Source: Candidatus Tanganyikabacteria bacterium | GTDB taxonomy: Bacteria > Cyanobacteriota > Sericytochromatia > S15B-MN24 > VGJW01 | Length of the DNA stretch: 64,000 bases | Direction of reading: 5' to 3' | Assembly (NCBI GenBank): GCA_016867265.1 | Contig: VGJW01000008.1 | Location: 458-64,457 of the forward strand | Shown here: piece after piece, positions 7,398 through 39,048 of the stretch | Layout of the letters: each line of letters begins with the position of its first letter | Position numbering within the stretch: the stretch's first letter is position 1 | The notes under the pieces: model-generated | Database searches by the model: none | What the model saw: only the letters and a program-made list of their open reading frames with translations | Told to the model about the DNA's origin: nothing | Program-made: the position numbers and the translations under genes

Positions 7398-7420
7398 TTC
7401 TGGAAGCAGGAGAATCAATC

Positions 7421-9937
7421 GTGCAAGACCCGACGCAGGCAACTCGCCACCCGGCGAGGTTCTTCAGGTTCGCCGTTGCTGGCGCCCTGGCGCTGGTGCT
7501 GGGTTGCCAGCAGATGGTCCAGCGGGGTGAACCCGCCAGCACCGGGAATCCGGTGACGGCAGGACAGGCTCCGGATGTCCAGGTGGCAGCCATGGCCCCC
7601 AAGCCAGCCCAGCCCGGCCAGCTGACCTCGGCCGAATTCCTCAAGCAGTGGCGGGAACAGAAGATCGGCGACCTCGATGGCAGCGTCGATGTCACGGCTG
7701 AGGTCGGCAGGAAGATCCAGGCCTCGGTGGCCGAGGTCGTGTCCTTCGCGACCATCTCGCTGATTGATGCCGAGAGCAATTCGGCCGCCGCGAGCACCGT
7801 CTCAAATGGCCGGGGCCAATTCACGCTTTCGATGAACGGCTTCATCCCCGATACGGGCCGCGCCTACTATCTGGAAGCTTCCAAGGGCCTGAACGGCCAT
7901 ATGCCGGGCAGCCCGGTCGTGCGGTTCCGCACCCTCGTCCGCTGGAACGGATCGAGCTGGGAATCGCTGTCCGGCAGCACCATCAGCATCAGCTCCCTCA
8001 CGACGGCCGTCTCCATCGCGGCCCAGCTGGCACCATCCACCTTCGACCCGGCGACGCTGATGAACAAGATCAATGCCTCGGTCAAGCCGCCCATCCTGAA
8101 CCGGGCGCCTGCCGCGCCGACGGGTTTCACCGATGCCCAGATTCTTGGGCTGGCCACGGACGTGCTGGCCTTCCTGACGGCCAATATGGACCCCATCGGC
8201 GCCCTGTCGGACGTGGCGCCCGCCATCACCTACCAGAGCACCGACTCGGCACGGCCCGGCCAGACGATCGAAATCCGGGGCAAGGGCTTCAGCCCGACGG
8301 CCACGCAAAACCTCGTGACGTTTGGTGGCAGTTCGCCCGGTGCCATCCTGGCCGGCGGAACCGAGCGCCTGTTCGTCATCGTGCCCGCGGACGCCGCGAC
8401 GGGTTCGCTCGTCGTGACGACGCCCCGGGGAGCGGTCACAGGCATGACGTTCTATGCAGGCCGAGCCAATCCGGTCTTCAAGATTTCGCGGTGGTTCCCG
8501 GCGGCAACCTTCTACCAGCCCGGAGAGGAAGTGACGCTGCTGGGCTTCGGGTTCTCGAACGTCCCGTCGGGCAACACAGTTGTCGTGGGTAACGTCACGA
8601 CGACGCCCTCCACGTGCGACGAGCAATTTCTCGTCTTCAAGGTGCCTGAAGATGCAACGAAGGGACCCATCAGTGTCCGGACCAGCGCGGGCAACAGCAA
8701 TGAGCTCAATATCAAAATCGAGTTCAGACCTGTCATCAAGGACTGGTTTCCGAGGGCTGGTGCCCCGCGAGGGGAACTCCAGATAACCGGCACGAACTTC
8801 GGCAAAGAACGGGGAACTCTGACCATTGGCAATACGGAGGCGAGCATCCTCGCGTGGACAGACACCGAAATATCGGCAGCGGTGGCGAACGGCAGCATTA
8901 CGGGAGACCTGACAGTTACCCGGAAGACTGGTGGGGCGACCAGCCCTGGCCGATTCACGGTGCTGAGCGGCACTATTTCCAGCTGGCAGTCCTCGACGAC
9001 GACAAACCAGTCCCATCAAGGGGGAATCATCGCCCGGAAGGGGAGATTCCTCTACGCGGCTGGAGGGTATTCAAACAGCAACGGATATAACAGCAGTGTC
9101 GAGCGTTGCACCTTGAGCGATGATGGTTCCTTGGGTGGATGGTCTGTCATGAGTGGCGTCAGTCAAGGCTGGACCTGGAATATGTATGGTGGCGAAGGCC
9201 CCAGCAACCAAGCACAAGTGATTGGTAACTATTTTTACGCTTATGCTGGTTATAATCCGGGCGGCTACGGATATAACGCGGTAAATAGAGCCCAGATTCT
9301 TGACAACGGCGACTTTGCCGGCAACTTCTCGCCTTCCGGCATCACGATGTCCCAGAACATCTACTATGTTGGCTATTTCAGGCGCATCCGAAACTATGTC
9401 TATAGCTTTGGCGGCTACTGGAATACGGACATCATACAGTCCGCAGCAATAAATGCCGATGGAAGCCTTCAGCCCTTCCAAAATGTCTCGCGGTTGCCTT
9501 CCGCCATCTATGGTGGCCACTTTGTCACGGCTGGACGGTATATCTATTGCCTTGCCGGCTACAGACCCTGGGACCACGGACACTACGGCTGGATGTATCG
9601 GGCGGAAATCGACCAGAACGGGGCCATCACGAACGGATTCCAGTACTTGTCACGCTCAACACCTTGCAACGTTTACGCAGGAAACACGGCAGTCATCGGT
9701 AACTACATCTACCTTTTCGAAGGCTACGACAACAACTGCACCGGATCTTGGAACCAGGGATACGTCTTCCGGGCGCCCTTGGACGCTAACGACAACCTTG
9801 GAAACTGGCAACAGGTGGGCTCCATGCCTGCAGGGACACACTATCCGAACTACGCTATCGTAGGAAATAAAATTCATATGTGGGGCCACTACGCGAACGC
9901 TCACTACGGAACTATCTTTACAGGCACTATCAACTAA
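7421..9937 (+). CDS. secreted multi-IPT/TIG protein with C-terminal Kelch-like beta-propeller
   Basis: GTG start with AGGAG RBS and a signal/lipobox LALVLGCQQ. Three IPT-like repeats (TIEIRGKGFSP.., EVTLLGFGFSNVP.., ELQITGTNFGKERG..). C-terminal repeats of aromatic Kelch-like blades (FLYAAGGY, YFYAYAGYNPGGYGYN, YVYSFGGYWN, YIYCLAGY, YIYLFEGYDNN). Confidence 0.7.
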   Translation: MQDPTQATRHPARFFRFAVAGALALVLGCQQMVQRGEPASTGNPVTAGQAPDVQVAAMAPKPAQPGQLTSAEFLKQWREQKIGDLDGSVDVTAEVGRKIQASVAEVVSFATISLIDAESNSAAASTVSNGRGQFTLSMNGFIPDTGRAYYLEASKGLNGHMPGSPVVRFRTLVRWNGSSWESLSGSTISISSLTTAVSIAAQLAPSTFDPATLMNKINASVKPPILNRAPAAPTGFTDAQILGLATDVLAFLTANMDPIGALSDVAPAITYQSTDSARPGQTIEIRGKGFSPTATQNLVTFGGSSPGAILAGGTERLFVIVPADAATGSLVVTTPRGAVTGMTFYAGRANPVFKISRWFPAATFYQPGEEVTLLGFGFSNVPSGNTVVVGNVTTTPSTCDEQFLVFKVPEDATKGPISVRTSAGNSNELNIKIEFRPVIKDWFPRAGAPRGELQITGTNFGKERGTLTIGNTEASILAWTDTEISAAVANGSITGDLTVTRKTGGATSPGRFTVLSGTISSWQSSTTTNQSHQGGIIARKGRFLYAAGGYSNSNGYNSSVERCTLSDDGSLGGWSVMSGVSQGWTWNMYGGEGPSNQAQVIGNYFYAYAGYNPGGYGYNAVNRAQILDNGDFAGNFSPSGITMSQNIYYVGYFRRIRNYVYSFGGYWNTDIIQSAAINADGSLQPFQNVSRLPSAIYGGHFVTAGRYIYCLAGYRPWDHGHYGWMYRAEIDQNGAITNGFQYLSRSTPCNVYAGNTAVIGNYIYLFEGYDNNCTGSWNQGYVFRAPLDANDNLGNWQQVGSMPAGTHYPNYAIVGNKIHMWGHYANAHYGTIFTGTIN

Positions 9938-9961
9938 ACCCCAAGGAAGGCAAGACACCCG

Positions 9962-10753
9962 ATGAAACGCGTGACACCCCGGGGGGCACTTGTATCAGGC
10001 CTCCTACTCCTCTCCATTCATGCGGGCGGCTGCACCGGCACGGCGGTTCCTGGTTCCGCTGCGACGAACGTGCCCAAGAAATCGCCCGCACCCAAGCCTT
10101 CAGCGGCCGCGCCGCGAGGACCAGGCACGGACAGTATGTCCGGCTCGATCGGGGGGGGCAGCAGCCCGACTCCGTCCCCTGCCACCTCCTCTGCTCCGCA
10201 GGGAGGTCAAACGGCAGGGGAAGCAAGTGGCGGGGCCGCCTCACCAGCGCCGACACCAGCCTCGGGCAGCGGCACTTCAGGCGGCTCAAGCCCTCAGGTG
10301 CCGGTGCCAACTGCAACAACCCCTCCCCCGTCTGGAACTCCGTCCTCGGGCGGAAACGACCCTGCGCCAGGCAACAATCCCTACTTCCCGCTGGAATCGT
10401 CCGACATCAAGTTAATGATTGGCAGTTCCATTGTCGGCAATATGATCAGTACGATCTACGAGCCGGCGCCCGACGGGAACAACTCCCTGAACAAGCCAAC
10501 CACGCTGAAACTGACGGCGTCTGTCTTGCTCAATAACCTCTCCACAGACAGCAGGGCCAAGTGGGAATCCAGGAACAGACTTGTGGCAATTGTTGACGCA
10601 ACAGGGCTCGTGACGGCAGTGGGCCGAGGCAGGACTGAAATTATCGCCAGACCTGCGGATGACCTGAGTTACCCAGCGGGCTACACGGTACCCACGGCAA
10701 CCGCGGTGATAGAAGTTCGTGCCGTCGCGGCCATCGACCTGGTGGTGGAGTGA
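9962..10753 (+). CDS. lipoprotein with Pro/Ser/Gly-rich linker and C-terminal Big_2-like Ig domain
   Basis: AAGGAAGG RBS. Lipobox LLLLSIHAGGCTG. Low-complexity PAPKPSAAAPRGPG...TPPPSGTPSSGG. C-terminal Big_2-like motif (LVAIVDATGLVTAVGRGRTEIIARP). Confidence 0.65.
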   Translation: MKRVTPRGALVSGLLLLSIHAGGCTGTAVPGSAATNVPKKSPAPKPSAAAPRGPGTDSMSGSIGGGSSPTPSPATSSAPQGGQTAGEASGGAASPAPTPASGSGTSGGSSPQVPVPTATTPPPSGTPSSGGNDPAPGNNPYFPLESSDIKLMIGSSIVGNMISTIYEPAPDGNNSLNKPTTLKLTASVLLNNLSTDSRAKWESRNRLVAIVDATGLVTAVGRGRTEIIARPADDLSYPAGYTVPTATAVIEVRAVAAIDLVVE

Positions 10754-19990: not shown

Positions 19991-21381
19991 GGCAGACCGG
20001 CCTCGCGGCCCTTGCCCTGTGCATCCTCGCCGCGAGCCCGGCAGGTGCGACCCCGAGACCTGACGCAGACGCAGCAGAGGCGACGCGGCTGCTCGTCGAG
20101 CTGGTCCGCGTGGACACAAGCAACCCGCCAGGACGCGAGCGCGAGGCTGCCGAGCGGCTCGCCGGCTGGTGCCGGGCCGAGGGCTTCCGGACCGAGGTCA
20201 TCGAGACCGCCCCGGAGAGGGCGTGTGTCGTGGCCCGCCTGCCCGGGTCCGGTCGCAAGCCCCCGCTGATGCTGCTGAGCCATCTGGACGTGGTGCCTGC
20301 CGAAGCCTCGCAATGGCAGCACCCGCCCTTCGGGGGCGTCGTCCGGGACGGCCGGATCTGGGGGCGAGGCACCCTCGACATGAAGGGCCTGACGGTCATG
20401 GAATTTCTGGCGATGGCTCGGCTGAGCCGGGCCGGCAAGGTCCCCGATCGGGACCTGCTGCTCGTGGCCGTCGCGGATGAGGAGGCGGGGGGAACGTGGG
20501 GCATCAACCGCCTGCTCGAGCTCAGGCCCGAACTGCTGCAGGCCTCGGAGTGCCTGAATGAGGGAGGCTTCGGGCTTGTGGCACCCGACGGAAGCCCTGT
20601 CGTGGGCCTGTCCGTGGCCGAGCGGGGCACGTTCTGGGTACGGATCACGGCCCGTGGCAAGCCGGGCCACGGCTCGGTCGACCGTCCGGACAGCGCCACC
20701 CGCCGTCTGCTGCGCGCCCTCGACCGGCTCGAGCGCACCCCCCGGCCACTGGGCCTCATCCCCGAGGCCGACGCACTAGTCGGAGCCTTGGCGCCAACCC
20801 TGCCGTGGCCCGCGTCCTGGGTCCTGCAGATGTTGCGCTGGCCGGGCATGGCCGGCCTGCTGGGGCCGCTCGTCGTCGCGCGGCAACCCTCCCTGGCCGC
20901 CGCTCTGGGCCCCACCGTCAACCCGACCGTCCTCGAGGCCGGCACCAAGGTCAACGTCGTGCCGGGCGAGGCCAGTGCACTCGTCGACGTGCGCACGATG
21001 CCCGGACAGGCCAGTAGCGAGGCGCTCGCTTGGCTGAAGCACGCCCTTGGCGACGACGCGCTCGACATCCGCGTGCTTCAGGACCGGCCGGGCACGCGAA
21101 GCCAGGCTTCGGGCACGCTCTACGACGCGCTGACCGAAAGCGTCCGTACCCACGTCCCCGATGCCCGCGTCACGCCCATGCTGACGCCTGCGGGCACGAC
21201 GGACTCGGCCAGCCTCCGGCCCCGCGGCGTGGCCTGCATCGGTCTGATGCCCGTCATCGCGAGCCAGGCCCAACTCGAATCCATCCACGGGGATGACGAG
21301 TGGCTGGGCCTCGAGCAACTGGCGATCGGTACCCGCATCGTCGCCGACGCCGTGGCCCGGGCCAGCGGCCTTACGCCCTGA
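19987..21381 (+). CDS. M20-family metallopeptidase (ArgE/DapE/CPG2-like), secreted
   Basis: M20 signatures HLDVVPA and GRGTLDMKG, with an EEAGG metal-ligand region. Signal peptide VRQTGLAALALCILAASPAGA. GTG 19987 overlaps the upstream TGA (GTGA). Confidence 0.85.
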   Translation: MRQTGLAALALCILAASPAGATPRPDADAAEATRLLVELVRVDTSNPPGREREAAERLAGWCRAEGFRTEVIETAPERACVVARLPGSGRKPPLMLLSHLDVVPAEASQWQHPPFGGVVRDGRIWGRGTLDMKGLTVMEFLAMARLSRAGKVPDRDLLLVAVADEEAGGTWGINRLLELRPELLQASECLNEGGFGLVAPDGSPVVGLSVAERGTFWVRITARGKPGHGSVDRPDSATRRLLRALDRLERTPRPLGLIPEADALVGALAPTLPWPASWVLQMLRWPGMAGLLGPLVVARQPSLAAALGPTVNPTVLEAGTKVNVVPGEASALVDVRTMPGQASSEALAWLKHALGDDALDIRVLQDRPGTRSQASGTLYDALTESVRTHVPDARVTPMLTPAGTTDSASLRPRGVACIGLMPVIASQAQLESIHGDDEWLGLEQLAIGTRIVADAVARASGLTP

Positions 21382-22417
21382 CGCCGGACGGACGGTCTGC
21401 CACCACAAGATACTCGTGGTTGCGCAGGCGCCCGACTTCGCCGACCTTGCGGCCCTTGGGATCGTGGATGCCGATGCGGGCCCCGATGTAGCGGACATGC
21501 TCGATGGTCCGCACGTGGACACGGGCCGTCCCGCCCCAGAGGCACCCCAGCATGCCCTCGAGGTCCGCTAGGCCCAGATAGCCCTCGTCGTTGAAAGAGA
21601 CCACCACGCGGTCGCGAGCCCGCAGCGCCCCCAGCACGGCCTCGAAGGCCTCGCGATGGCGGGGCCGCGAGTTGAAGGCGCTACGACGCTCGCGGGTGTC
21701 GACGCGCTTGCACGCAACGCCGTAGGCCTCGGGCGCATCGTCCCGCACCAGCGTCTCCCAGACGTGGTAGTAGGCGTGGTACGCGTGCTGGTTGTACGGC
21801 GGATCGAGGTAGGCCACGTCGACCTCGTGTGCAGCCGCCGCCTCGACGGCTTCGAGGCCCAGCGCCAGGCCCTTGCCAGCCGATGAGCGCGGGATCAGGT
21901 CGGGGATGCGAAGCACGAGATCCCCGAGCGCCCGGGGCGCCCAGTGCTTGAGGTACGCCATCTGCAAGCCGGTCGTCGAATCGACGCGGTCCGCAGCCTC
22001 CATCAGGGCCACCAGCAGGATGGCTTCGCGCTCGGGCATGAGGTCCAGCTTGCCGATGCGCGCCCGGATGGCGTCGATGCGTGCTCCGTTGCGCGGGTGA
22101 AAGAATCGGGCCCGCTCGCAGAAGGTCTCCGTGAAGTAACCGGACGTCCCGGCCACGCCATTGAGCTCGGCGATTAAGGCCGGCAGGTCGCCCATGTGGT
22201 CCGCGGCATCCGCCGCGACATAGCAGCGCGCCAGGACCTCGGCGTAGGCGTTGTGGTCGTTGGCGATGACCCGGTGCCCGAGGCGCTTCAGGGCGTGCCC
22301 CACGCGCGAGGTGCCCGAGAAGAGGTCCAACACCGTACATGGGGCGCCGCGGTCCCCGACGAGGGCGTCGAGGACCGCGGGCATCAGGGCGCGCTTGGAG
22401 CCCAGGTACTTGATCAC
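21371..22417 (-). CDS. D12-class (Dam-like) N6-adenine DNA methyltransferase, orphan
   Basis: N-terminal MIKYLGSKR (Dam 'GSK' SAM motif), FSGTSRVG, and catalytic DPPY (VAYLDPPYNQ). GTG start overlaps the stop of the upstream VIT/vWA gene (GTGA). No restriction endonuclease gene is adjacent. Confidence 0.85.
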   Translation of the reverse strand: MIKYLGSKRALMPAVLDALVGDRGAPCTVLDLFSGTSRVGHALKRLGHRVIANDHNAYAEVLARCYVAADAADHMGDLPALIAELNGVAGTSGYFTETFCERARFFHPRNGARIDAIRARIGKLDLMPEREAILLVALMEAADRVDSTTGLQMAYLKHWAPRALGDLVLRIPDLIPRSSAGKGLALGLEAVEAAAAHEVDVAYLDPPYNQHAYHAYYHVWETLVRDDAPEAYGVACKRVDTRERRSAFNSRPRHREAFEAVLGALRARDRVVVSFNDEGYLGLADLEGMLGCLWGGTARVHVRTIEHVRYIGARIGIHDPKGRKVGEVGRLRNHEYLVVADRPSGVRA

Positions 22418-26134: not shown

Positions 26135-26935
26135 ATGCCGCAGATGCACGAAGTAGACTTTGAAATCAAAGGCGAAACCGTCCACTACGTCGAAGTGGAA
26201 CTGGATCCGGGCGAGGCAGCTGTCTCCGAGGCAGGCGCCATGTTGTGGGCCGAGGATGGCATCGTCATGGAGACGCTCTTCGGGGATGGGTCGCAGAAGA
26301 GCGGCGGCTTCCTCGGTTCGCTGCTGGGCGCGGGCAAGCGCCTGCTGACGGGCGAGTCGCTGTTCGTCACCATCTTCCACAACCAGGGCACCGGCAAGCG
26401 CCGGGTCGCGTTCTCGGCCCACCAGCCGGGCGAGATCGTTCCCGTCTCGCTGGATACGGTCGGCGGCACGCTCATCGCGCAGAAGGAAGCCTTCCTCTGC
26501 GGGGCCAAGGGCGTCAGCATCGGCCTGCATCTGCAGCGCAAGCTGGGCGCGGGGTTCTTCGGCGGCGAGGGCTTCATCATGCAGAAGCTCGAAGGCGACG
26601 GCCTGGTGTTCCTGTCGGCCGGTGGCTCGCTCATCCAGCGGTCGCTGCGTGACGGCGAGCGTCTCCGCGTCGATACCGGATGCGTCGTGGCCTACGAGAC
26701 TTCGGTCGACTTCGACATCGAGCTGGTCCGGGGCCTGAAGTCGATGTTCTTCAGCGGCGAAGGCATGTTCCAGTCGACGTTGGTCGGTCCCGGCCGCATC
26801 TGGCTGCAGTCGATGCCGTTCTCACGGATGGCGAGCGCCGTCGTCTCGGCGGCGGGCATCCGTCCAGGAAGCAGCAGCAGCGGCGGTGGATCCGCCCTCG
26901 GGATGATTGGCGACATGCTCGGAGGTAACGAGTAA
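26135..26935 (+). CDS. TIGR00266/AIM24-family protein
   Basis: Characteristic Gly-rich beta-strand repeats (AFLCGAKGVSIGLHLQRKLGAGFFGGEGFIMQKLEGDGLVFLSAGGSLIQRSLRDGERLRVDTGCVVAYE). GAAGGAGGG RBS. Confidence 0.85.
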   Translation: MPQMHEVDFEIKGETVHYVEVELDPGEAAVSEAGAMLWAEDGIVMETLFGDGSQKSGGFLGSLLGAGKRLLTGESLFVTIFHNQGTGKRRVAFSAHQPGEIVPVSLDTVGGTLIAQKEAFLCGAKGVSIGLHLQRKLGAGFFGGEGFIMQKLEGDGLVFLSAGGSLIQRSLRDGERLRVDTGCVVAYETSVDFDIELVRGLKSMFFSGEGMFQSTLVGPGRIWLQSMPFSRMASAVVSAAGIRPGSSSSGGGSALGMIGDMLGGNE

Positions 26936-28386
26936 TGCGGCGGACGAACCGGCAAGTATTCTCCATGCTGGCCTTCTCGGTCGGCATCGTCGGTCTCGCG
27001 ACCGAGGCCAACGCCCAGGTCAAGCGAAGCGGCGGACCAGCTTCGCTGAGCACCCCGGCGCCGCTCAAGCCTGCAGCAGCGCCCGTGAGCGCCGGCATGC
27101 CCGCCCAGGTCGCCGAGGCCAAGGGACACACGGGACTCTCCATCGACATCGGGATCGGCCTTGGCGGTGCCCACGGCCAAGCCGGCACGGCGACCGTGCG
27201 GACAAAGACCGCGGCCGAAATCGTCAACGACATCGATCCCTCGCCCAAGAACGCCAGCACGGTGACCTCGGACGTCACCAGCACGACGCTGGGTGGCGGG
27301 CTGGGTGCCAGCTACGGTCTCGGATTGCGCTGGCGCAGCGGCGAGGGCTGGGGAACCAGCCTGCGCATCGACGGGGGTGGGTTCTCCTCCGGTACATCCA
27401 CGACGGCGCTGGGCAGCCTGGGCCGGACAGACAAGGATGCGGTCGCCTCCGTGGCAACGGAAGGCACGAAGACCACCGCGAAGACTCTGGGCGATCGCCT
27501 GGATGTCTCATCCTTGCTGGCGGGCGTGCTTGGTGCATCGGTAGCCCTGACCTTCCCTGTCCCGCTTCCTGCCAACCAACAGCCCGCTGTCGGCCCCGCC
27601 CCGACGACGACAACGTTCACGGGGCTGGGCAACTTGGCGCAGGCAGGTGGTACCTTTGCGGTACGGGACGGGGCGGTCGACAATGCCGGCACCACCAGCA
27701 CCTTCAAGTCGACGGGCGGCATCGCCTACCGTCACGCGGCCTCGCTCCTGATCTACGACATGACGGCGGCCACGAGCATGGCCGTCATGCGTCGTCCTGA
27801 TGCCGAAATCAGCCTCGTGGGCGGCCTCACCGTGCCCGCGGCCGTGCGTTCGGCCTCGTTCGTGCAGCAGACGGTGGATGCCACCGGCAAGCCTGCCGAG
27901 CTTTCGGAGCTGGAGACCCTCACCACGACGGCGGACGGCGCGGCCAAGGGCTCGGTCCTCAACGGCTTGAACGCCACCAGCAACGTCACGGTGGACACCA
28001 CCGAGGTCATGTTCGGCCCCCTGCTGGGCGCCGAGGGACACGTGGCACTTGGGTCCGGTGCGACGATCTACGGCCAGGTCGGCTGGGCACCTGCTCTGGG
28101 TGGCCAGGGCAGCAGCCGGACCCGCAGCGTCGAATCCGGTGTGCGCCGGGTCGAGACCATCGCGGAAGACAAAAGCGCCACGACTACCGAGAACCAGATA
28201 GCCAACAGCGTGACCACGGAAACGGCCCGCGGCTTCCTGGGCCAGTCCGCCCAGGGCCTCGTCGGCCTGCAACTGCAGGTGCTGGGTCTCGACACGTTCG
28301 TCGAGACGGGCGCGCGCACCTACACGTTCGGCACGGGGCCCCAGACGGTCTGGCATGTCCGAGGCGGCGCCGGCCTGTCGTTCTGA
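26935..28386 (+). CDS. outer-membrane beta-barrel protein
   Basis: Signal peptide MRRTNRQVFSMLAFSVGIVGLATEANAQ. Alternating amphipathic strands. C-terminal ...VRGGAGLSF ending in Phe. ATG overlaps the upstream TAA (TAATG). Confidence 0.6.
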   Translation: MRRTNRQVFSMLAFSVGIVGLATEANAQVKRSGGPASLSTPAPLKPAAAPVSAGMPAQVAEAKGHTGLSIDIGIGLGGAHGQAGTATVRTKTAAEIVNDIDPSPKNASTVTSDVTSTTLGGGLGASYGLGLRWRSGEGWGTSLRIDGGGFSSGTSTTALGSLGRTDKDAVASVATEGTKTTAKTLGDRLDVSSLLAGVLGASVALTFPVPLPANQQPAVGPAPTTTTFTGLGNLAQAGGTFAVRDGAVDNAGTTSTFKSTGGIAYRHAASLLIYDMTAATSMAVMRRPDAEISLVGGLTVPAAVRSASFVQQTVDATGKPAELSELETLTTTADGAAKGSVLNGLNATSNVTVDTTEVMFGPLLGAEGHVALGSGATIYGQVGWAPALGGQGSSRTRSVESGVRRVETIAEDKSATTTENQIANSVTTETARGFLGQSAQGLVGLQLQVLGLDTFVETGARTYTFGTGPQTVWHVRGGAGLSF

Positions 28387-28397
28387 CATGCGCACAC

Positions 28398-28432
28398 CGG
28401 GGGTCGGATGCCGTGAGCATCGGCCCCCGGTC
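28398..28432 (+). terminator. terminator-like hairpin after OMP gene
   Basis: CCGGGGGTCGGATGC-CGTGA-GCATCGGCCCCCGG imperfect long inverted repeat followed by TCCTGCTTGG. Confidence 0.35.
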
Positions 28433-28460
28433 CTGCTTGGGGTAAGGTGAGGACATCACC

Positions 28461-31400
28461 ATGACTGTCTCTCCCTCCACCGACATCACGGCACGCGCGG
28501 AAGCCTCGGTCGAGGCATGGAAACGCAGGCTGCTCGACCTGTCCCTGCGCAACAGGGCCCTGAATCTCAAGACCGGTGGTCCCGGCGCGCTGGCGTGCGA
28601 GGGCCCGGATCCCGTGCAGGCCCTGCGCCACCTCGTCCTCGACGAGCAACGATATGGTTTCCACGCGACCCGAACGACCGAAGGCACCGAGGAAGATCCT
28701 GCGGTTGCTCCGGGCGTCCCGGAGGCCAGCCTGGCCGTCGCCATGACCCGGCATGCCCTGGACGGGGCACTGCGACGGCTGGATGATGCCGCCGCCCGGG
28801 CACGGGAAGACCAGGGCCTGGGCATCCTCTTCCTCTGCCTCGGGCAGATCCGCTGGGTCGACCCGCGCCAGCCGGGCACCCCGCTGCTGGCACCGCTGCT
28901 GCTGCTGCCGGTGACCCTCTCACGAAGGGCGGTCGGTGGCAGCTACCACCTCGAGGCCAGCCAGGAAGACCCCATCGTCAACCCCACCTTGGCCGAAGCC
29001 CTGCGCCACCACCACCGCATCGAACTTCCGGCCCTGCCCGACGACCTCGACCCGCCCGACGAGCAACAACCCGATCCCCTGGCGGCGTGGTTCGACGACG
29101 TGACCCGGGAAATCGGCCGGATGGACAAGGGCGCCATCGAGCACCGCGTCGTCCTGACCACGCTCTCCTTCGCGAAGTACGTCATGTATCGCGACCTGAA
29201 CGTGCTCGCGCCGGGCCTTGCCGCGCACCCCCTCGCCAGCAGGCTCTTCCAACGCAAGGTCGACGAGATGGTCGGCCTGCCCGCAAGCATGCGCGACCTC
29301 GATCTGGACCGCGACCACCCCCCGGAGAACACGCCCCAGATCGTCGATGCGGATGGCAGCCAGTTGCGCGCCGTCGCCGCGGTGTCCAGAGGCCATGACC
29401 TGGTTCTGGAAGGTCCGCCCGGCACGGGCAAGTCACAGACCATCACCAACCTGATCGCCTCGGTCCTCGCCCGTGGGGGCCGCGTCCTCTTCGTCGCCGA
29501 GAAAAAGGCGGCGCTCGACGTGGTCCATGCCAAGCTGGCGGCGGCCGGCCTGGGCGAATGCTGCCTCGAGCTTCATGCGGCCAAGGCGACACGCCGCGCC
29601 GTCCTCGCCAGCATCGGGGAGGCCCTGGATCGCTCGTTGGCGCAGGTCACCCCACCCTCGGGCGCGGGCCCCGTCCTCAAGGACAGCCGGGCGCGCCTCG
29701 CGGCCTACCTCGGAGCCCTGCATCAGACGACACCTGAGGGCGGGCTGTCGGCGCGCATGTGGATGGACCGGCTCGAACCCGTCCGTCAGGCACCACGGTG
29801 TACGCTCGAGGGCGCCCCGGCAGCGTGGAACGAGACCCTCTGGCGCGAGGCCATCCGAGCCCTCGAGGCCCTGGGCCAGACCGGCACGGCGCTTGGCAAT
29901 CCGGCCGACCACCCGTGGCGGGGCTGCCGCCTGATCCTGCTGACGGAAGACCGCACGGCCCGCATCGACGAGGCCGCGGGCCTGCTCAGGCAGGCACTGG
30001 ATACGGCCCGAGATGCGGCCGTGGCCGTGGCTGGCAACTATGGCCTGCCGCCTCTGCGCAAGCTGTCGGACCTCGCAATGGCCGCGAGCCTGGGCGACAT
30101 GCTGGCCGAGGCACCCGGCCTGCCGATGCTGGACGAGGCGTGGCAGGCGCCCCCCCCTGCCGCGACGGCAGCCCTCGAGGCCCTGCGCACCCTGGCCAAC
30201 CGGCGCAAGGCCATCGCACCCTGGGCCGAGGGCCGATGGGACGCTTGCACCGCGCTGCCCCGGGAAACCCTGTCGGCCGACCTGGCCCATGTCCGGGCGG
30301 CCCGGCAACGCCTGTGGGGCCTAGGAGCCCTGCTGGACGGACGGGTCCGGCACTTGCGGCGCCATTGGGCCAACCTCGGCGACAAACTGTCGGCCGCCGA
30401 TACCGAGCAACGTCTGGCCGACGTGGTGGCATGGCGCGACGCGGTCGCCGCCGTCGAAGCCATGGCTGCCGAGGGCCAAAGGGTCTTCGGGGGGCTGTGG
30501 CGCGGCACCGCGACCGATGCCGAGGCCCTGGGCCAGGCCATGGACTGGATGGTGGCCTTCCGAGCGCTTTGCGTGCGCCATCAGCTGTCCCGGGAGCCTC
30601 TTGCCGGGGTCGCGGGCCAACGGCATCCGGAGGTCTCGGACCTGCGGGCCTTGCGCCAGCGGCTGGAAGCCCTGCGCACCGCATTGCGATCTCTGGAAGA
30701 GGCCGTGGCCTGGCCCGAGGGATGGCTGGCGAACGAGGACCTCGATGAGGCGGATCGCCGGGTGGAAGCCCTGCAGGCACGGCTTGCGGACGGACCACGC
30801 TGGACGGCGTGGGAAGGTGCGCGACAACAGGTGCTGGCAACGGAGGGGAGACGCATCCTCGCGGCGGTCGACGACGGCAGGATTCCTCCAGCGCAGGCTG
30901 CGGCAGCCTTCCAGCGGGCCGCGGCAGTGGAGCGCCTGGATGCCCTGGTGGCCGGCAATCCGGTGCTCGCGAGCTTCAATGGTCCGGTGCACGAGCAGGA
31001 CATCGACACCTTCCGCAAGCTGGACCAGCAGGTCCTGCAGGACAATCGCCTCGGCCTGGTGGCGGGACACCGGCATCGCCTGCAGGAGGCCTTCCGCCAA
31101 CCGGACCTGCAGGCCGAGCTCCAGATCCTGCGGCGCGAGGTCAATCGCCTGCGGGCCCACCGTCCGCTGCGCGAGACCATGCGCAAGGCAGGCAGGGCCA
31201 TCCGCACCATCAAGCCGTGCCTGCTGATGAGCCCGCTGACCGTGGCCCAATTCCTGCCGCCCGACATCGAAGCCTTCGACCTGGTGGTCTTCGACGAAGC
31301 CTCGCAGTTGCCGACTCAGGACGCCATCGGCGCCATCGCGCGGGGCCGCCAGCTGGTGGTGGTCGGGGATCCCCGGCAGCTGCCGCCTACCAACTTCTTC

Positions 31401-33182
31401 CAGATCGCCCTCGACGAGGAAGTTCCTCGGGACGAGGACGGCGAGCCCCTGCTGGAAACCACCGAGAGCGTCCTCGAGGAGTTCGTGTCGGCGGGCATCC
31501 CGTTCTGCCGCCTGAAGTGGCATTACCGCAGCCAGCACCCCTCCCTGATCCAATACTCCAACGTGCAGTGCTACGACGGTGAGTTGCTGACGCCCCCGTC
31601 GCCCTTGCCGCGATCAGAGACCCTCGGGCTTGCCTTCCACCACGTCGCGGACGGCATCTATGAGGGGCAGGGCCGCAACCCTCGCGAGGCCCGTGCCGTG
31701 GCCGAAGCCGTCATGGCTCACTTCCGCCGGCACCCCGACTTGTCTCTGGGCGTCGGCACCTTCAACCAGGCACAGCAGCAGCTGATCCTCGATGAAGTGG
31801 ACCGCCTGCGCCGCCAAGAGCCCGATCTGGAAGCCCTCTTCGGACGGGACCGGCCCGAGCCCTTCTTCGTGAAGCACCTCGAAACCATTCAGGGCGATGA
31901 GCGCGACGTCATCCTGATCTCGGTCTCTTACGGCCGCAACAGCCAGGGTCGCATCCACCAGCTCTTCGGTCCCCTGAACCAGGACCAAGGCTGGCGCCGG
32001 CTGAACGTCCTCGCCTCGCGAGCTCGCAAGCGGATGGCGGTCTACGCGTCCATCCTTGCCGAGGACCTGCGCCTGGGTCCCGCGCAGTCGGATGGACCAA
32101 GGCTGCTGCGGACCTTCCTGCACTTCGCCCAGACCGGACATCTGGACCTTCCGGGCGGCCACGCCGACGCACTGCCCGAGAACGCCTTTGAGGCCGGAGT
32201 ACGCGGGGAGCTTGCACGGCTGGGCCACGAGGTCGTCTCCCAGGTCGGCGTGGCCGGCTTCCGCATTGATCTGGCCGTCATGGACCCGGCGCGACCGGGT
32301 CGCTTCCTGTGCGGCATCGAGTGCGACGGCGCCAGCTATCACAGCTCCCCCACGGCCCGGGACCGGGATCGCCTGCGCCAGCAACTGCTCGAGGCCCGGG
32401 GCTGGACCATCCTGCGGGTCTGGTCGACGGACTGGTTCAAGGACCGTGCCGGCGAGGTCGCGCGCCTGGATGCACGGTTGAAAGAGTTGGCGAGGCAGGC
32501 CCAACCGGTGTCGGCAGTCGAAACGGCGAATACGGAGGCAGCCGCGTCCATCACCGTTGCCCCAGAGGCCCCCTCTGCTGCGCCCGTTACGGCGACCGAC
32601 GGCAGCGATGCTCGCGAACGCCCCTACCGGCGCCCGGTCCTGACACGCTATGTGGCCGTCACCGAGTTGACGCCGGCGCCCGGCGGCGAGCTGGCCGAAG
32701 CCCCGCTCGACCTGCTGGCCCGCCACCTGCGCCAGATCGCGGCGGTCGAGGCCCCCATCCACGTCGATGAACTTGCGGCAAGGCTCGTGGCTATCTGGCA
32801 ACGCCGACAGGGCAGCCGCATCCGGGCGCACCTCGACAGGGCCTTGGCCATCCTGCTCCGCGAGGGTGGCTTGGTGCGTCGCGGCGACTTCATCCATCGG
32901 GAGGAAGGCCGGGTCCTGCCACGCTGCCGCACGGACGTGGCCCTGAAGGCGGATCGGATCGCACCCGAGGAATACGGCGCGGCCTTGCTCGCCGTGCTTG
33001 CAGACGGCCACGGCTTCGATCGGGACCGACTGTTGGGGGAAGTGCGGGGCGTGTTGGGCTTCAGCCGGACAGGTCCCCAGCTGGAAGCCGCCATCGAGGC
33101 CGCCATGCAGGATTTGCTGGCCCAAGGAGCCCTTGGCCAGGGCAGTGCAGGCGTCGCGCTGCGGGAAGGCCAGGGGGGCTGA
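28461..33182 (+). CDS. large DUF4011 / SF1 (Upf1-like) helicase / DUF559-Vsr-like endonuclease protein (Hhe-like single-gene defence candidate)
   Basis: Walker A GPPGTGKSQTITNLIAS. Motif II VVFDEASQL and VVGDPRQLPPT. C-terminal helicase motifs (ETIQGDERDVILIS; LNVLASRARKRM). Endonuclease-like fold FRIDLAVMDPARPGRFLCGIECDGASYHSS...RDRLRQQLLEARGWTILRVWSTDWF. AAGGTGAGGA RBS. Confidence 0.85.
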   Translation: MTVSPSTDITARAEASVEAWKRRLLDLSLRNRALNLKTGGPGALACEGPDPVQALRHLVLDEQRYGFHATRTTEGTEEDPAVAPGVPEASLAVAMTRHALDGALRRLDDAAARAREDQGLGILFLCLGQIRWVDPRQPGTPLLAPLLLLPVTLSRRAVGGSYHLEASQEDPIVNPTLAEALRHHHRIELPALPDDLDPPDEQQPDPLAAWFDDVTREIGRMDKGAIEHRVVLTTLSFAKYVMYRDLNVLAPGLAAHPLASRLFQRKVDEMVGLPASMRDLDLDRDHPPENTPQIVDADGSQLRAVAAVSRGHDLVLEGPPGTGKSQTITNLIASVLARGGRVLFVAEKKAALDVVHAKLAAAGLGECCLELHAAKATRRAVLASIGEALDRSLAQVTPPSGAGPVLKDSRARLAAYLGALHQTTPEGGLSARMWMDRLEPVRQAPRCTLEGAPAAWNETLWREAIRALEALGQTGTALGNPADHPWRGCRLILLTEDRTARIDEAAGLLRQALDTARDAAVAVAGNYGLPPLRKLSDLAMAASLGDMLAEAPGLPMLDEAWQAPPPAATAALEALRTLANRRKAIAPWAEGRWDACTALPRETLSADLAHVRAARQRLWGLGALLDGRVRHLRRHWANLGDKLSAADTEQRLADVVAWRDAVAAVEAMAAEGQRVFGGLWRGTATDAEALGQAMDWMVAFRALCVRHQLSREPLAGVAGQRHPEVSDLRALRQRLEALRTALRSLEEAVAWPEGWLANEDLDEADRRVEALQARLADGPRWTAWEGARQQVLATEGRRILAAVDDGRIPPAQAAAAFQRAAAVERLDALVAGNPVLASFNGPVHEQDIDTFRKLDQQVLQDNRLGLVAGHRHRLQEAFRQPDLQAELQILRREVNRLRAHRPLRETMRKAGRAIRTIKPCLLMSPLTVAQFLPPDIEAFDLVVFDEASQLPTQDAIGAIARGRQLVVVGDPRQLPPTNFFQIALDEEVPRDEDGEPLLETTESVLEEFVSAGIPFCRLKWHYRSQHPSLIQYSNVQCYDGELLTPPSPLPRSETLGLAFHHVADGIYEGQGRNPREARAVAEAVMAHFRRHPDLSLGVGTFNQAQQQLILDEVDRLRRQEPDLEALFGRDRPEPFFVKHLETIQGDERDVILISVSYGRNSQGRIHQLFGPLNQDQGWRRLNVLASRARKRMAVYASILAEDLRLGPAQSDGPRLLRTFLHFAQTGHLDLPGGHADALPENAFEAGVRGELARLGHEVVSQVGVAGFRIDLAVMDPARPGRFLCGIECDGASYHSSPTARDRDRLRQQLLEARGWTILRVWSTDWFKDRAGEVARLDARLKELARQAQPVSAVETANTEAAASITVAPEAPSAAPVTATDGSDARERPYRRPVLTRYVAVTELTPAPGGELAEAPLDLLARHLRQIAAVEAPIHVDELAARLVAIWQRRQGSRIRAHLDRALAILLREGGLVRRGDFIHREEGRVLPRCRTDVALKADRIAPEEYGAALLAVLADGHGFDRDRLLGEVRGVLGFSRTGPQLEAAIEAAMQDLLAQGALGQGSAGVALREGQGG

Positions 33183-33231
33183 ATCGGAGTCTTGGCATGC
33201 CTGAACCCGAGGTTGCGATCCAGCAGACGGG

Positions 33232-33645
33232 GTGACGCCTTGGGTCGCGGCCCTGATGCCGAGGGTTGCCACCCTCGCCAACGAGGTGGCCGCCTCGCAG
33301 GTCTATCCGCGTGGCTTCATCGGTTCGGACGGCAGGCCCGACTGGAACGCGTCGATCCTCACCTCGGCAGTCGTCCGGCCGCTGGCCTTGGGTTCCGGTC
33401 ACCTGCTGGCGGGCGATTCCGGACGCGCCACATGGGTGGGCCTCGGGGCAGCGGTGGCCAGCGCCGTCGCGTCGACGGCATTCGAAAAGGCGGCCTTGTC
33501 GGCATACAAGCCGGCAGAAAGCCGTACCGCCCTCGACGCGGCGATGATTTACCTGTCAGCCGGTGTGTACGCCGGCGTCCATGCCGCCGTTGCGTGGGAT
33601 GCCTGGCGCACGGCGGAAGGTTTCCCGACGACCGAAGCCAAGTAA
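33232..33645 (+). CDS. hypothetical small membrane protein
   Basis: 137-aa ORF with hydrophobic stretches and high GC3. Weak RBS. No family recognised. Confidence 0.3.
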   Translation: MTPWVAALMPRVATLANEVAASQVYPRGFIGSDGRPDWNASILTSAVVRPLALGSGHLLAGDSGRATWVGLGAAVASAVASTAFEKAALSAYKPAESRTALDAAMIYLSAGVYAGVHAAVAWDAWRTAEGFPTTEAK

Positions 33646-33700
33646 GCCGGTCGGGAGGCCTCGGGACCAAGCCGGCGCGACGGCTGGCCTTGACGCCGTA

Positions 33701-34531: not shown

Positions 34532-35302
34532 ATGCGTCAGCACGCCCTACCCGTGGCCCTTGCCGTGGTCACGATTGCCGGCTTCGCCGCCTTGCGCGCC
34601 CAAGCCTTCGATGCCTTCGACGGTCCCGTCGCGTCCAGCCAGCGCGAGACGGATCTGGTGGACCTCTATGTCTTCCGCGATGCGGAGCAATCGGATGCCG
34701 GCGTCTCGAACGACATCGACGCCATCATGACCGTGGCACCGGGGACGACCCTGAACGGCGTGCCCACCTTTCCCACGAATGCCCGCTACAACCTGCACAT
34801 CGGCCGGGTGACGGGCGGACCGACCACGACACCGGCCGGGACCGCAGACCTGACGCTGAGCGTCAACTTTGGTGCCGTATCCGGCACGCAACAGGCCATG
34901 AGAATCACGGCCATCCAACACGCGGCGCCTGCCGCGACCGCGACCGTCACGGTCAACACCGACGGCGAACCCTTGCTCACCTCGCCCCCCGCCGGGACGG
35001 GCGCGCTGGTCCACACGGCCGAGCTGACCTTGGGCAGCCAGGCCAAGGTTTCCTTCAGGGCATTTGCCGGCCTGCGCGAAGACCCCTCGTATCACGACCG
35101 TGCCCGCTTCCTGTCGATTCTCGATGGCTTGGCCGCGGGCGGCGCGGCACCGGCACCCTTCGCCTCGCCGGGCCTGGGCACGGATGCGGCAGCAGGTCGC
35201 AACGTCCTGGCCATCGCCTTGTCCCTGCCGCCCAACTTGCTCAAGGGCAGCGTCAACACGACGGTCTTCGACACGTGGCAGACCATCGAGGTGGCGCGAT
35301 GA
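34532..35302 (+). CDS. secreted DUF4331-like protein
   Basis: Signal peptide [26 protein letters not shown]-terminal ...[16 protein letters not shown] resembles the DUF4331 opening. Translationally coupled (ATGA) to the collagen-like gene. Confidence 0.45.
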
Positions 35303-36144
35303 AGGCCGGCCTTGTTTTGGGGCTTTCCCTCGCAAGCCTCGTGGCCTGCCGGCCGGCGACGACGATCGCGGGCAAGGATGGCGTCCCGGGGGCGACCGGC
35401 CCCTCGGGCCCTCCGGGCATCTCGGGCGCCACGGGCAGTCCCGGCCCGCAGGGCGTTCCCGGAGCCACGGGTTCGATTGGGCCGGCGGGGCCGACCGGAG
35501 CAACTGGCAGTCCTGGACCGTCGGGTCCGCCGGGCTCAAAGGGACAGACCGGCCCTGCAGGCAAGGACGCGGGCGTGCTCCCCAATCCGACGGCACCCGT
35601 CTCCCTCGAGGTCCTCGGGGCCAACGGCTGGGTGCAGGTGGATCGCTCCGCGCGACCGGGCTTGGCCCTGCTGTTGCGTGATGGTGCGGATCAGGACGTT
35701 TGGAACACCATGACGCCGACGGATGACGTCGCGAGCACCAGCACGAGCCTGGGCATCCGCAAAGCCTTGGCCGACTCGCTCAAGCTGCTTGGCCACAAGG
35801 ATGCCTCGGGCGACCTCGATGCAACGGGTTCGGCCATGCTGGCGGCCTTCCTGCCCGATGCTCTTCGTATCGAGACCAGCACCACGGGCGGCTACGGTGC
35901 GCAGGTGCGCACCACCACGAACACGGCCCTCGACGAAATGACGGCGACCCCATTCCTGACGGGTGGCCGGCGCATCAAGGACGACGCCTTCGACATCAGC
36001 TTGGGCTACTGGTCGGCCCATGCGACGTGGTCGGCGGGCGACGGAGTCAGCTACGACGGCCCCAATCTGGGCACCTATCCCAACGGACGCACCGGCCACA
36101 AACCGCTCAAGGGATCGTTCCCCTTCCTCGCGCCGCCGAACTAG
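35299..36144 (+). CDS. collagen-like triple-helix repeat lipoprotein
   Basis: Lipobox [11 protein letters not shown]. About 25 uninterrupted G-X-Y triplets ([66 protein letters not shown]). Globular C-terminal domain. Confidence 0.8.
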
Positions 36145-37232: not shown

Positions 37233-38222
37233 TCAGGGACGCGGGGAGACAGGCTCCTTCCGGGCTTCGAGGACCAGATCCCGTGCCACGTTTGCAAAGG
37301 TCCGGTAGGTGTTGCCGCCCGGTGGTCGCTCGGACAGGATCGACACCACCAGACGTCGTCCACCGAGCGTGACGATGCCCGCGTCATGAGTGACACGCGA
37401 GGTCTCGCCGGTCTTGTGGAAGACGCGGGCACCGGGCGGCAGCGCGGCCGGGATCTTATCGTTATCCATCTGGCGGCCCAAGATCTCTTTCATGCGGGCC
37501 GAGGCCTCGGGAGAGATCAATCGGCCTTCCTCGATACGCCCCAACAGATCAGACACCTGATCCGCCCGGACTTGATTACGGCCGCCGACATAGCCGGGAT
37601 CCGGAATAGGCGCGGCCCCGCTAAGCTTGCGGTTGATTTGCAGGTCGGGCCAACCGAGGCGCGCCATGGTCGCGTTGATGTCCTGCCGGCCAAGGACATC
37701 CATCAAGGTATTGGTGGCGACATTGTCCGACCGAGTGATCATGAGATCGACCAGTTGCTGGACGGAAACCTCGTCACCGACCTTGAGGACAGGCAGCCAG
37801 GTCTCGGTCATGTTTTCGGGCCGGATGCGCACGCGCATCGCGGGATCGAGGCCCTTGTCCGCTCGCTGGCGCTCCATCTCGACCATCACGTAGAGCTTCG
37901 CGATGGAGGCGCCGGGACGGATGGATGACGCTTTCCACGTGCCCATGTCGCCCGTGACGACATCCCGTATGACGACAGAGGCATCCTGGAAACCGTGCTT
38001 CTCCATGGTCCGGGCCAGGACGGCCTGCAGGCCTTCAGCCCGTCTGGCGGCGGCTTCCGGGGAGAGGCGCACCCGATCCTTCGAAGCCGGGGGCGCGGAT
38101 GTCGGCGCGGGCGCCGGCGGGAGAGCAGGAGCGGCTTCGCGCCCGGTTCCGGGCCTCGGCGACGCGTGACGGGCAGGGGACTGACCCCAGGACCAAGCAA
38201 AAGGACTCATACAAGGATTCAT
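37233..38222 (-). CDS. class A beta-lactamase-family serine hydrolase
   Basis: SxxK (GASIAKLYV), SDN (TRSDNVATN) and KTG (FHKTGETS) motifs in class-A order. Start uncertain: ATG 38222 (MNPCMSPFAW) chosen inside ORF 37233..38303. Confidence 0.7.
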   Translation of the reverse strand: MNPCMSPFAWSWGQSPARHASPRPGTGREAAPALPPAPAPTSAPPASKDRVRLSPEAAARRAEGLQAVLARTMEKHGFQDASVVIRDVVTGDMGTWKASSIRPGASIAKLYVMVEMERQRADKGLDPAMRVRIRPENMTETWLPVLKVGDEVSVQQLVDLMITRSDNVATNTLMDVLGRQDINATMARLGWPDLQINRKLSGAAPIPDPGYVGGRNQVRADQVSDLLGRIEEGRLISPEASARMKEILGRQMDNDKIPAALPPGARVFHKTGETSRVTHDAGIVTLGGRRLVVSILSERPPGGNTYRTFANVARDLVLEARKEPVSPRP

Positions 38223-38301
38223 CGCCCCGGCGCTTCTCGGACTTGCGCCGATATGACGGCTGTTTGACCCCTTCCCCGGAGCGGGATTAGCATGGATCGC
38301 C

Positions 38302-39048
38302 ATGGCCGCCCGAAACGCATTCCTCTCCGCGAACCCCCTTGCCGCCTACTACGGCACCACGATCGGCAAGAAGGCCGTGGTCGCTGCGACAGGCCTCATC
38401 CTGATCGGCTTCCTGTTCATCCACCTGGCCGGCAACCTGCTGATGTTCCAGGGCCCCGAGGCCATCAACACCTACGCCGAGTGGCTCGAGGACCTCGGCC
38501 ACGGGGCCGCCAAGTGGGTGGTGCGGGCCGTGTTGCTGGCCTCGGTGGTGCTCCACGTCGTGACGACGGCCCGCCTGACGCGGGAAAACCGCGCAGCCCG
38601 GCCGCAGAAGTACGCCGTGGCCGCGCCCCAGCGCTCGACGGTGGCCTCCCGCAGCATGATCCTGAGCGGCCTCACCCTGCTCTCCTTCATCATCTATCAC
38701 TTGCTCCACTACACTGTCCGGACGGTCCACGCGGCCGCGACCGCAGCCCACGAGGCCTCGCTCGCCACACCCGGCGGCAACGGGGCCTTCGCAGGCGAGA
38801 ACGTCTACAACATGGTCGTGGCGGGCTTCAGCCATCCGGGTGTCTCGTTCTTCTATGTCCTGTCGATGTTCCTGCTGTGCCTGCACCTCAGCCACGGCTT
38901 CCAGAGCGCCTTCCAGACCCTGGGCCTGTCGAACGCGCGGATGAAGCCGACGTGGGGCAAGGTCGGCATCGCCGTCTCCTGGCTGCTCTTCGTGGGCTTC
39001 GCCTCCATCCCCGTCGCCGTCCTCACCGGCCACCTCAAGGCCCTCTGA
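38302..39048 (+). CDS. sdhC: succinate dehydrogenase cytochrome b subunit (Bacillus-type, 5-TM dihaem)
   Basis: Five predicted TM helices with conserved His pairs. Immediately upstream of the flavoprotein and Fe-S subunits. Confidence 0.85.

Follow-up and report, generated by a model that had tools for sequence, protein, structure and literature searches.

The window is a stretch of 64,000 nucleotides from contig VGJW01000008.1 of a Candidatus Tanganyikabacteria bacterium (assembly GCA_016867265.1, positions 458 to 64,457 of the forward strand). The organism belongs to the Sericytochromatia, little-studied non-photosynthetic relatives of cyanobacteria. We describe here a single long open reading frame (ORF) in this window, encoding a helicase-nuclease for which the original prediction had proposed an Hhe-like function in phage defence. 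The motor belongs to superfamily 1B (SF1B), and the parts of the gene are the following.

28461..33182, plus strand: complete ORF, ATG start, 1573 aa; DUF4011 / split SF1B helicase / Vsr-family nuclease / DUF3320 tail
28461..29345, plus strand: N-terminal alpha/beta module with DUF4011, aa 1-295; candidate regulatory or sensor domain
29346..29555, plus strand: N-terminal part of RecA1, aa 296-365; Walker A G318-T327 at nt 29412-29441
29556..31157, plus strand: all-alpha insertion of ~530 aa, aa 366-899, which divides RecA1 between its Walker A and Walker B motifs
31158..32060, plus strand: C-terminal part of RecA1 and RecA2, aa 900-1200; Pfam AAA_19/AAA_12
32187..32480, plus strand: MTES_1575 Vsr-family nuclease, aa 1243-1340; D1270, E1287, D1289, H1294
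32496..33179, plus strand: C-terminal tail, aa 1346-1573, including DUF3320 at nt 32691-32828

Position, strand and length of the ORF were predicted correctly, and the translation contains all motifs quoted for it: GPPGTGKSQT, VVFDEASQL, VVGDPRQLPPT, QGDERDVILIS, FRIDLAVMD, CDGASYHSS and RDRLRQQLLEARGWTILRVWSTDWF. A GC content at third codon positions of 0.84 is in line with genuine genes of this window of ~69% GC, and the 94%-identical ortholog P0001 has the same length of 1573 aa. The profile searches proposed as a check found the expected domains, with DUF4011 at aa 23-181 (E = 6e-27), AAA_11 at aa 298-364 plus a second stretch, AAA_19 at aa 898-976, AAA_12 at aa 1002-1195 and DUF3320 at aa 1411-1456 (E = 3e-10). 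The SF1 helicase is thus split, and AAA_30 also matches the N-terminal part of RecA1. For the nuclease, predicted to be of Vsr/DUF559 type, the assignment to the Vsr family holds through the restriction-endonuclease-fold domain MTES_1575 at aa 1243-1340 (E = 2e-33), but DUF559 itself stays under its Pfam cutoff (E = 0.0023). This nuclease family has been termed 'novel Vsr-REase', and DUF3320 has been assigned as a winged helix-turn-helix (PMC3710099). No solved structure in the PDB corresponds to DUF4011, the helical insertion or DUF3320, and we found none of any member of the helicase-nuclease family either; a fold search with the 530-aa insertion returned generic four-helix bundles only.

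The catalytic residues are intact. Walker A (G318-T327), Walker B (D945-E946, nt 31293-31298), motif III (G969-T977, with G969-D970-P971 and Q973-T977), motifs V/VI (Q1144-G-D, R1148, R1180 and R1187) and the nuclease residues D1270, E1287, D1289 and H1294 show no variation across 40 homologs (39-94% identity). Walker A, a Walker B of the DEAS form, GDPxQLPP, the arginines of motifs V/VI and the homology to Upf1, IGHMBP2 and Dna2 define an Upf1-like SF1B helicase, as predicted, and the MTES_1575 match together with the conserved acidic and histidine residues defines a nuclease of the Vsr family with PD-(D/E)XK character. Compared with the PDB, the family profile finds IGHMBP2 (1e-12), Dna2 (7e-10), Sen1 and Upf1, over a range of 1e-12 to 1e-6. 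These eukaryotic and archaeal SF1B enzymes have motor motifs and profile-level homology in common with the window protein. In Dna2, too, a single chain combines an SF1B motor with a nuclease of PD-(D/E)XK type, but this nuclease is N-terminal and of another family, and only the motor is homologous. Members of the SF1B group translocate in the 5'->3' direction. The sole PDB sequence match of the nuclease region is a RAP domain, which is marginal (E = 0.0078). Within the nuclease, E1287 aligns with E1727 of Klebsiella Hhe, the catalytic glutamate of its IECDG motif. In E. coli Hhe the exchange E1731A is reported to abolish defence (preprint), and E1731 is probably this same glutamate, under a presumed offset of four residues in numbering.

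Selection follows this partition into cores and accessory modules. The whole gene shows a dN/dS of 0.088 and 0.121 at dS of 0.36 and 0.98 in comparison with two relatives. The catalytic cores are much more constrained, with 0.006 for the N-terminal part of RecA1, 0.028 for its C-terminal part with RecA2 and 0.045 for the nuclease. At 0.15-0.18, the values for the DUF4011 module, the insertion and the tail are 3-5 times those of the cores, which is expected for regulatory, sensor or recognition surfaces.

The best PADLOC match of the protein is PDC-S37 (PDLC05009; E = 0, 1322.3 bits), with aa 14-1562 aligned to positions 7-1541 of a profile of 1550. The PADLOC check proposed for the region returned the model of a defence candidate, PDC-S37 rather than Hhe, whose PADLOC model (PDLC02194) gives a partial match only (582 bits, E = 4.6e-175). 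The NCBIfam Hhe model (NF042953) aligns in two partial stretches and reaches 836.1 bits (E = 6.5e-251) against a cutoff of 2000; as positive control, a Klebsiella IncFIB plasmid gene annotated hhe reaches 2735 bits in NCBIfam and 4299 bits on PADLOC Hhe. NCBIfam names the nearest curated clade 'anti-phage protein ProA' (NF058533). Its profile aligns collinearly over positions 354-1903 of 1903, and the score of 1263.3 bits lies below the cutoff of 1500, as do the 1369-1382 bits of other ~1600-aa homologs; the positive control WP_004118855.1, a Raoultella IncF plasmid protein of 1963 aa, scores 2223.8 bits. ProA, homolog P0003 and a copy from a Ralstonia megaplasmid likewise have PDC-S37 as their best PADLOC model. 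These profile scores group PDC-S37 and ProA in a single broad clade, separate from that of Hhe. The window protein falls within this PDC-S37/ProA clade, but short of both curated equivalog definitions. Identity as Hhe is ruled out by the curated cutoff and the architecture, identity as ProA by the cutoff and the missing N-terminal extension.

The architectures show where the proteins part. Hhe combines DUF4011, a split SF1 helicase and an MTES_1575/Vsr-type nuclease in one polypeptide, as does the window protein, and the two are 39% identical over the C-terminal half of the helicase and the nuclease. The predicted likeness to Hhe is thus that of a true homolog built to the same plan, but the Hhe insertion measures ~890 aa compared to ~530 aa, Hhe has no DUF3320 tail, and it is found on conjugative plasmids among restriction-modification (RM), DUF262 and insertion sequence (IS) genes. 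ProA is closer in plan, with the same order of DUF4011, helicase with an insertion of ~530-540 aa, MTES_1575 and DUF3320. It differs by an additional N-terminal extension of ~350-370 aa with no Pfam match, which moves the start of DUF4011 from residue 23 to residue 375. BLASTP gives 35-38% identity between ProA and the window protein in the N- and C-terminal blocks and ~30% across the whole alignment. ProA is plasmid-borne and adjoins IS110, in contrast to the chromosomal, syntenic copy described here; a megablast search for ProA among complete E. coli genomes gave no match. PDC-S37 is, like the window protein, a single gene without a conserved partner. It was selected as an untested candidate on the ground that at least one homolog lay within a BREX, DISARM or type I RM system, whereas the window gene adjoins no such system. 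In a joint alignment, the window protein is 41-46% identical to ~1600-aa proteins of soil bacteria, which are 56-90% identical to one another across phyla; its identity to ProA, to the Ralstonia copy and to Hhe is 30-34%.

The family as a whole is large. A word-index search finds at least 6,000 full-length homologs at E <= 1e-10, and 119 of the 120 homologs among the matches listed carry the same set of Pfam domains. An exhaustive search with the DUF4011 module yields 2,440 clusters at 50% identity (E <= 1e-10), with lengths peaking at ~1550-1650 aa and at ~1800-2100 aa; the longer peak is the ProA type, with DUF4011 starting near residue 370-410. Plasmids contribute 488 matching records, including 243 Klebsiella plasmids and 108 Ralstonia megaplasmids, and the Klebsiella records sampled are mostly annotated hhe. 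On conjugative IncF plasmids, relatives have two DUF262 genes, IS elements and the gene for a type I RM R subunit as neighbours. An IS5-family transposase interrupts the homolog in certain megaplasmids of Ralstonia solanacearum (CP076416.1, CP071915.1), and the gene is therefore dispensable in that species. Near-full-length relatives are also present on ~12 prophage-like contigs of IMG/VR.

Among chromosomal copies, the homologs P0010, P0004 and P0057 each adjoin parts of one common housekeeping block, of which PPK/Omp85/Metallophos is shared by loci L005 and L020 and Omp85/Metallophos/DUF4956/S15 by L005 and L019. The homologs of L019 (4401-9740) and L005 are 90% identical and have the Omp85/Metallophos/DUF4956/S15 flank in common, and in L019 an extra toxin-antitoxin (TA)-like cluster of ~5 kb (Gp49/HTH, nucleotidyltransferase, PIN/MazE) is inserted beside the helicase gene. 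In a Pyrinomonadaceae metagenome-assembled genome (MAG; L008, L009, 6047-14896), 7 nt are shared between the start of the homolog and the stop of an SbcC-like gene, with SbcD before it, and this homolog may be operonically linked to the SbcCD-type nuclease. The same locus has a TPR-CHAT protein upstream and a GmrSD gene 8 kb downstream.

Taken together, we read the gene as a helicase-nuclease that surveys foreign DNA, PDC-S37/ProA-like, sister to the validated Hhe and chromosomally fixed, with defence argued from homology. We consider this reading somewhat better than even, with a probability of about 0.55. Hhe/HheA is attributed to Gao et al. 2020, and Hhe is not mentioned in Vassallo 2022. 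Hhe is reported active against lambda, T3, T7 and PhiV-1, and its nuclease E->A mutant loses defence (preprint). Candidate triggers of Hhe are T7 DNA-metabolism genes and g40 of Bas63, and expressing a trigger is toxic; according to this work, what activates Hhe may be the effects of phage DNA metabolism and not one phage protein. Also in favour are the relatives on IncF plasmids and prophage-like contigs, the dispensable Ralstonia copies, the invariant catalytic residues, the fast accessory modules, and the TA, Abi, defence, transposase, AIPR, GmrSD or CHAT genes within 10 kb in 7 of 9 chromosomal contexts. Such activation fits a motor that engages replication or recombination intermediates. 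By analogy, the motor of the window protein would load on single-stranded DNA at the ends or forks of replicating foreign DNA and, driven by ATP, move 5'->3' along it. The C-terminal nuclease (D1270/E1287/D1289/H1294) would then cut the DNA, with the winged-helix DUF3320 tail helping to hold it, and the DUF4011 domain and the 530-aa helical insertion may keep the enzyme off or select its trigger. From knowledge of the family we infer that the enzyme moves 5'->3', that its substrate is DNA, that the accessory modules regulate it and that it serves in defence, and likewise what would trigger it and with what outcome.

Several observations weigh against this reading, most of them at the locus itself. 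The same site is occupied in 4/4 available Sericytochromatia relatives (94% identity in L001, 83% in L002, 82% in L012 and 64% in L013 over 511 residues before the contig ends), and the closest ortholog, at 94%, comes from a Sericytochromatia MAG. Conservation as a syntenic gene had been named beforehand as a result that would weaken the defence interpretation, and it does weaken the picture of a defence island, for a small sample: the test for presence or absence was anchored on AIM24 with one genome per species, and the scan returned three Sericytochromatia species. The GC content of the gene equals that of its surroundings. Near the locus we found no tRNA genes and only short flanking repeats at chance level, as the original prediction of no visible mobile-element boundary had implied; the flanking genes scanned contain no integrase or transposase domains. 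PADLOC run over 10 neighbours matches only a solitary methyltransferase. With no mobile neighbours, no defence neighbour besides this methylase and no variation in presence among the four relatives, the gene does not have the makeup of a defence island or of mobile cargo. Its dS and dN/dS lie inside the range of the neighbouring genes (dN/dS about 0.04-0.27), and it therefore diverged together with its flanks under purifying selection. Beyond the locus, the counts of TA, transposase and similar neighbours in other chromosomal contexts have no baseline for comparison. The gene is essentially missing from sequenced phages (4 weak matches in 50,697 records). For P. aeruginosa, a preprint reports that all isolates have a large DUF4011 gene in their core genome, at the right border of the defence hotspot cDHS1. 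PDC comprises 145 explicitly untested candidates, each chosen because a BREX, DISARM or type I RM locus contained at least one homolog (Payne et al. bioRxiv 10.1101/2024.01.29.577857). Literature searches found no paper naming PDC-S37, nothing relevant for a ProA publication and no experiments on the PDC-S37/ProA-like clade. We conclude that the gene is chromosomally fixed and vertically inherited in this lineage and does not lie on a mobile island. This evidence counts against a mobile defence island and not against a fixed immune gene; of the predicted phage-defence gene, the homology to validated Hhe stands.

The main rival explanation is housekeeping genome maintenance, in which the enzyme would process stalled forks, flaps and breaks of the host in a Dna2-like manner, with Hhe and ProA as exapted offshoots. 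The synteny in 4/4 relatives, the neighbour-like dS, the low dN/dS, the native GC and the lack of mobile-element marks or a defence island all agree with it, as does the presence of Dna2 and IGHMBP2 among the closest solved relatives of the motor. A second lineage keeps its homolog at the PPK/Omp85/Metallophos/DUF4956/S15 block, an SbcD-SbcC pair and one homolog overlap by 7 nt at the stop codon of the pair, and the core status in P. aeruginosa and the 108 Ralstonia megaplasmids point the same way. However, an anti-phage label is attached to each of the two named sister clades, with validation by experiment for Hhe, and the spread of the family is patchy, with 64-94% identity within the clade falling to 45% in unrelated phyla. 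No named cyanobacterial homolog occurs among the 120 matches listed, and AIM24-anchored loci of three other phyla are without the gene. The gene is dispensable, as its IS-disrupted copies show, and relatives lie on plasmids and prophage-like contigs. We regard host maintenance as possible, though distinctly less probable than surveillance of foreign DNA. A related and rather unlikely view takes the ~1600-aa PDC-S37-type proteins as a vertically inherited, quasi-core resident enzyme whose locus repeatedly borders variable DNA, for example TA and transposase genes in several phyla, the 518-nt insertion that follows the gene here, and cDHS1, at whose edge the P. aeruginosa gene is reported to sit. 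On this view, mobile Hhe and ProA would be exaptations of an ancestral enzyme of genome maintenance, or else the activity of the enzyme itself would help to create or guard an integration hotspot.

An RNA-directed function, with an Upf1/Sen1-like motor surveying transcripts or R-loops and the C-terminal domain acting on RNA or binding it, draws on the RNA helicases Upf1, Sen1 and IGHMBP2 among the solved relatives and on the match to the RAP domain, which occurs in RNA-binding proteins. We consider it improbable, as the RAP match is marginal, Dna2 as a DNA enzyme matches the motor equally well, the nuclease fits the Vsr-family model at 2e-33 with its acidic triad intact, and published work takes Hhe for a DNA nuclease system. 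Least probable, and strongly disfavoured, is that a former defence gene persists here as a decaying or inactive relic. The lack of defence neighbours and of the ~350-aa N-terminal extension of ProA could be taken in this sense, but the frame of 1573 codons is intact and its length conserved in orthologs, dN/dS is 0.09-0.12 overall and 0.006-0.045 in the catalytic cores with all catalytic residues invariant, and thousands of ~1600-aa homologs have the same architecture.

If surveillance of foreign DNA is indeed the function, a ProA/Hhe-type helicase-nuclease has become fixed in a Sericytochromatia chromosome, as one more immune gene that behaves like a core gene and not like mobile cargo. The surprise in this is modest, since PADLOC and NCBIfam already flag the protein and no new mechanism is demonstrated.

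Upstream, a spacer of 74 nt separates the start codon from the stop of the preceding outer membrane protein (OMP)-like gene at 28386. It contains two candidate signals.

28397..28430, plus strand: GC-rich hairpin (-37.1 kcal/mol, z = -2.99; 0/200 shuffles fold as well)
28446..28453, plus strand: Shine-Dalgarno-like GGTGAGGA, 7 nt 5' of the ATG, read from the sequence

No T-run follows the hairpin, which is therefore not a canonical intrinsic terminator, and it was not called in the terminator scan. That scan gave two terminator-like sites, a number within chance expectation, and the promoter scan found no sigma-70 promoter-like site.

The gene order is M20 peptidase, D12 methyltransferase, VIT-VWA, NmrA-like, AIM24, OMP-like and helicase-nuclease, followed by a 212-aa protein on the minus strand, two DUF4331 genes, an SDR gene, a class A beta-lactamase and succinate dehydrogenase genes. 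The neighbours and features discussed below are these.

21371-22417, minus strand: D12-class (Dam-type) adenine methyltransferase; PADLOC Type II MTase, 438 bits
22414-25041, minus strand: VIT-VWA protein, 875 aa, listed with a TTG start
26935-28386, plus strand: OMP-like gene, 483 aa, with a signal peptide (ending in ATEANA, followed by Q), a Gly/Thr/Ser-rich body and a C-terminal Phe
33184-33700: segment of 518 nt directly after the helicase-nuclease stop, found only in this genome
33256-33645, plus strand: ORF of 129 aa, Ala/Gly-rich and hydrophobic, within the 518-nt segment
34532-35302 and 35275-36144, plus strand: overlapping pair of DUF4331 genes that together cover one DUF4331 profile
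37233-38303, minus strand: class A beta-lactamase (Beta-lactamase2, 1e-45), 4 kb downstream of the helicase-nuclease

The AIM24 family of the upstream neighbour, as originally predicted, is confirmed (E = 6e-67). The predicted OMP between AIM24 and the helicase-nuclease is plausible by its signal peptide and C-terminal Phe, although the 483-aa protein has no Pfam or PADLOC match; no other gene at the locus evolves as fast (dN/dS 0.21-0.28). On the downstream side, the small hypothetical gene of the prediction exists as the 129-aa ORF but lies in the genome-specific 518-nt segment, which is missing from 3/3 relatives that cover the junction and have ~20-50 nt there. The ORF has no further copy in the window or in the compared loci. 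What had been taken for a CHAP-like hydrolase is really the DUF4331 pair, the second ORF of which also carries collagen-like repeats. The split into two genes is no frameshift artefact of this assembly, because two genes are also called in the 94% relative.

The D12 methyltransferase lies between the M20 peptidase and the VIT-VWA gene and is syntenic in all relatives at 82-91% identity. Without an adjacent restriction enzyme, conserved and syntenic, it therefore behaves as a solitary methylase. The VIT-VWA gene evolves much faster than the adjacent genes, with identities of 82% and 62% compared to 91% and 79-87%, and tblastn gave no match to it in the more distant relative L013. Its TTG start is probably over-extended, as the gene in L001 encodes 812 aa and a MerR gene fills the overlap. 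Further upstream, a patch of low GC at ~7400-10750 (0.58 compared to ~0.69) encodes large TIG/IPT and Big_2 proteins, presumably located at the surface. Considered as an island, this patch at 7.4-10.7 kb was rejected, since its TIG/Big_2 proteins are unrelated to the helicase-nuclease. The beta-lactamase is kept in the relatives that cover its site, with 87% identity in L001 and a partial match at the end of L012.

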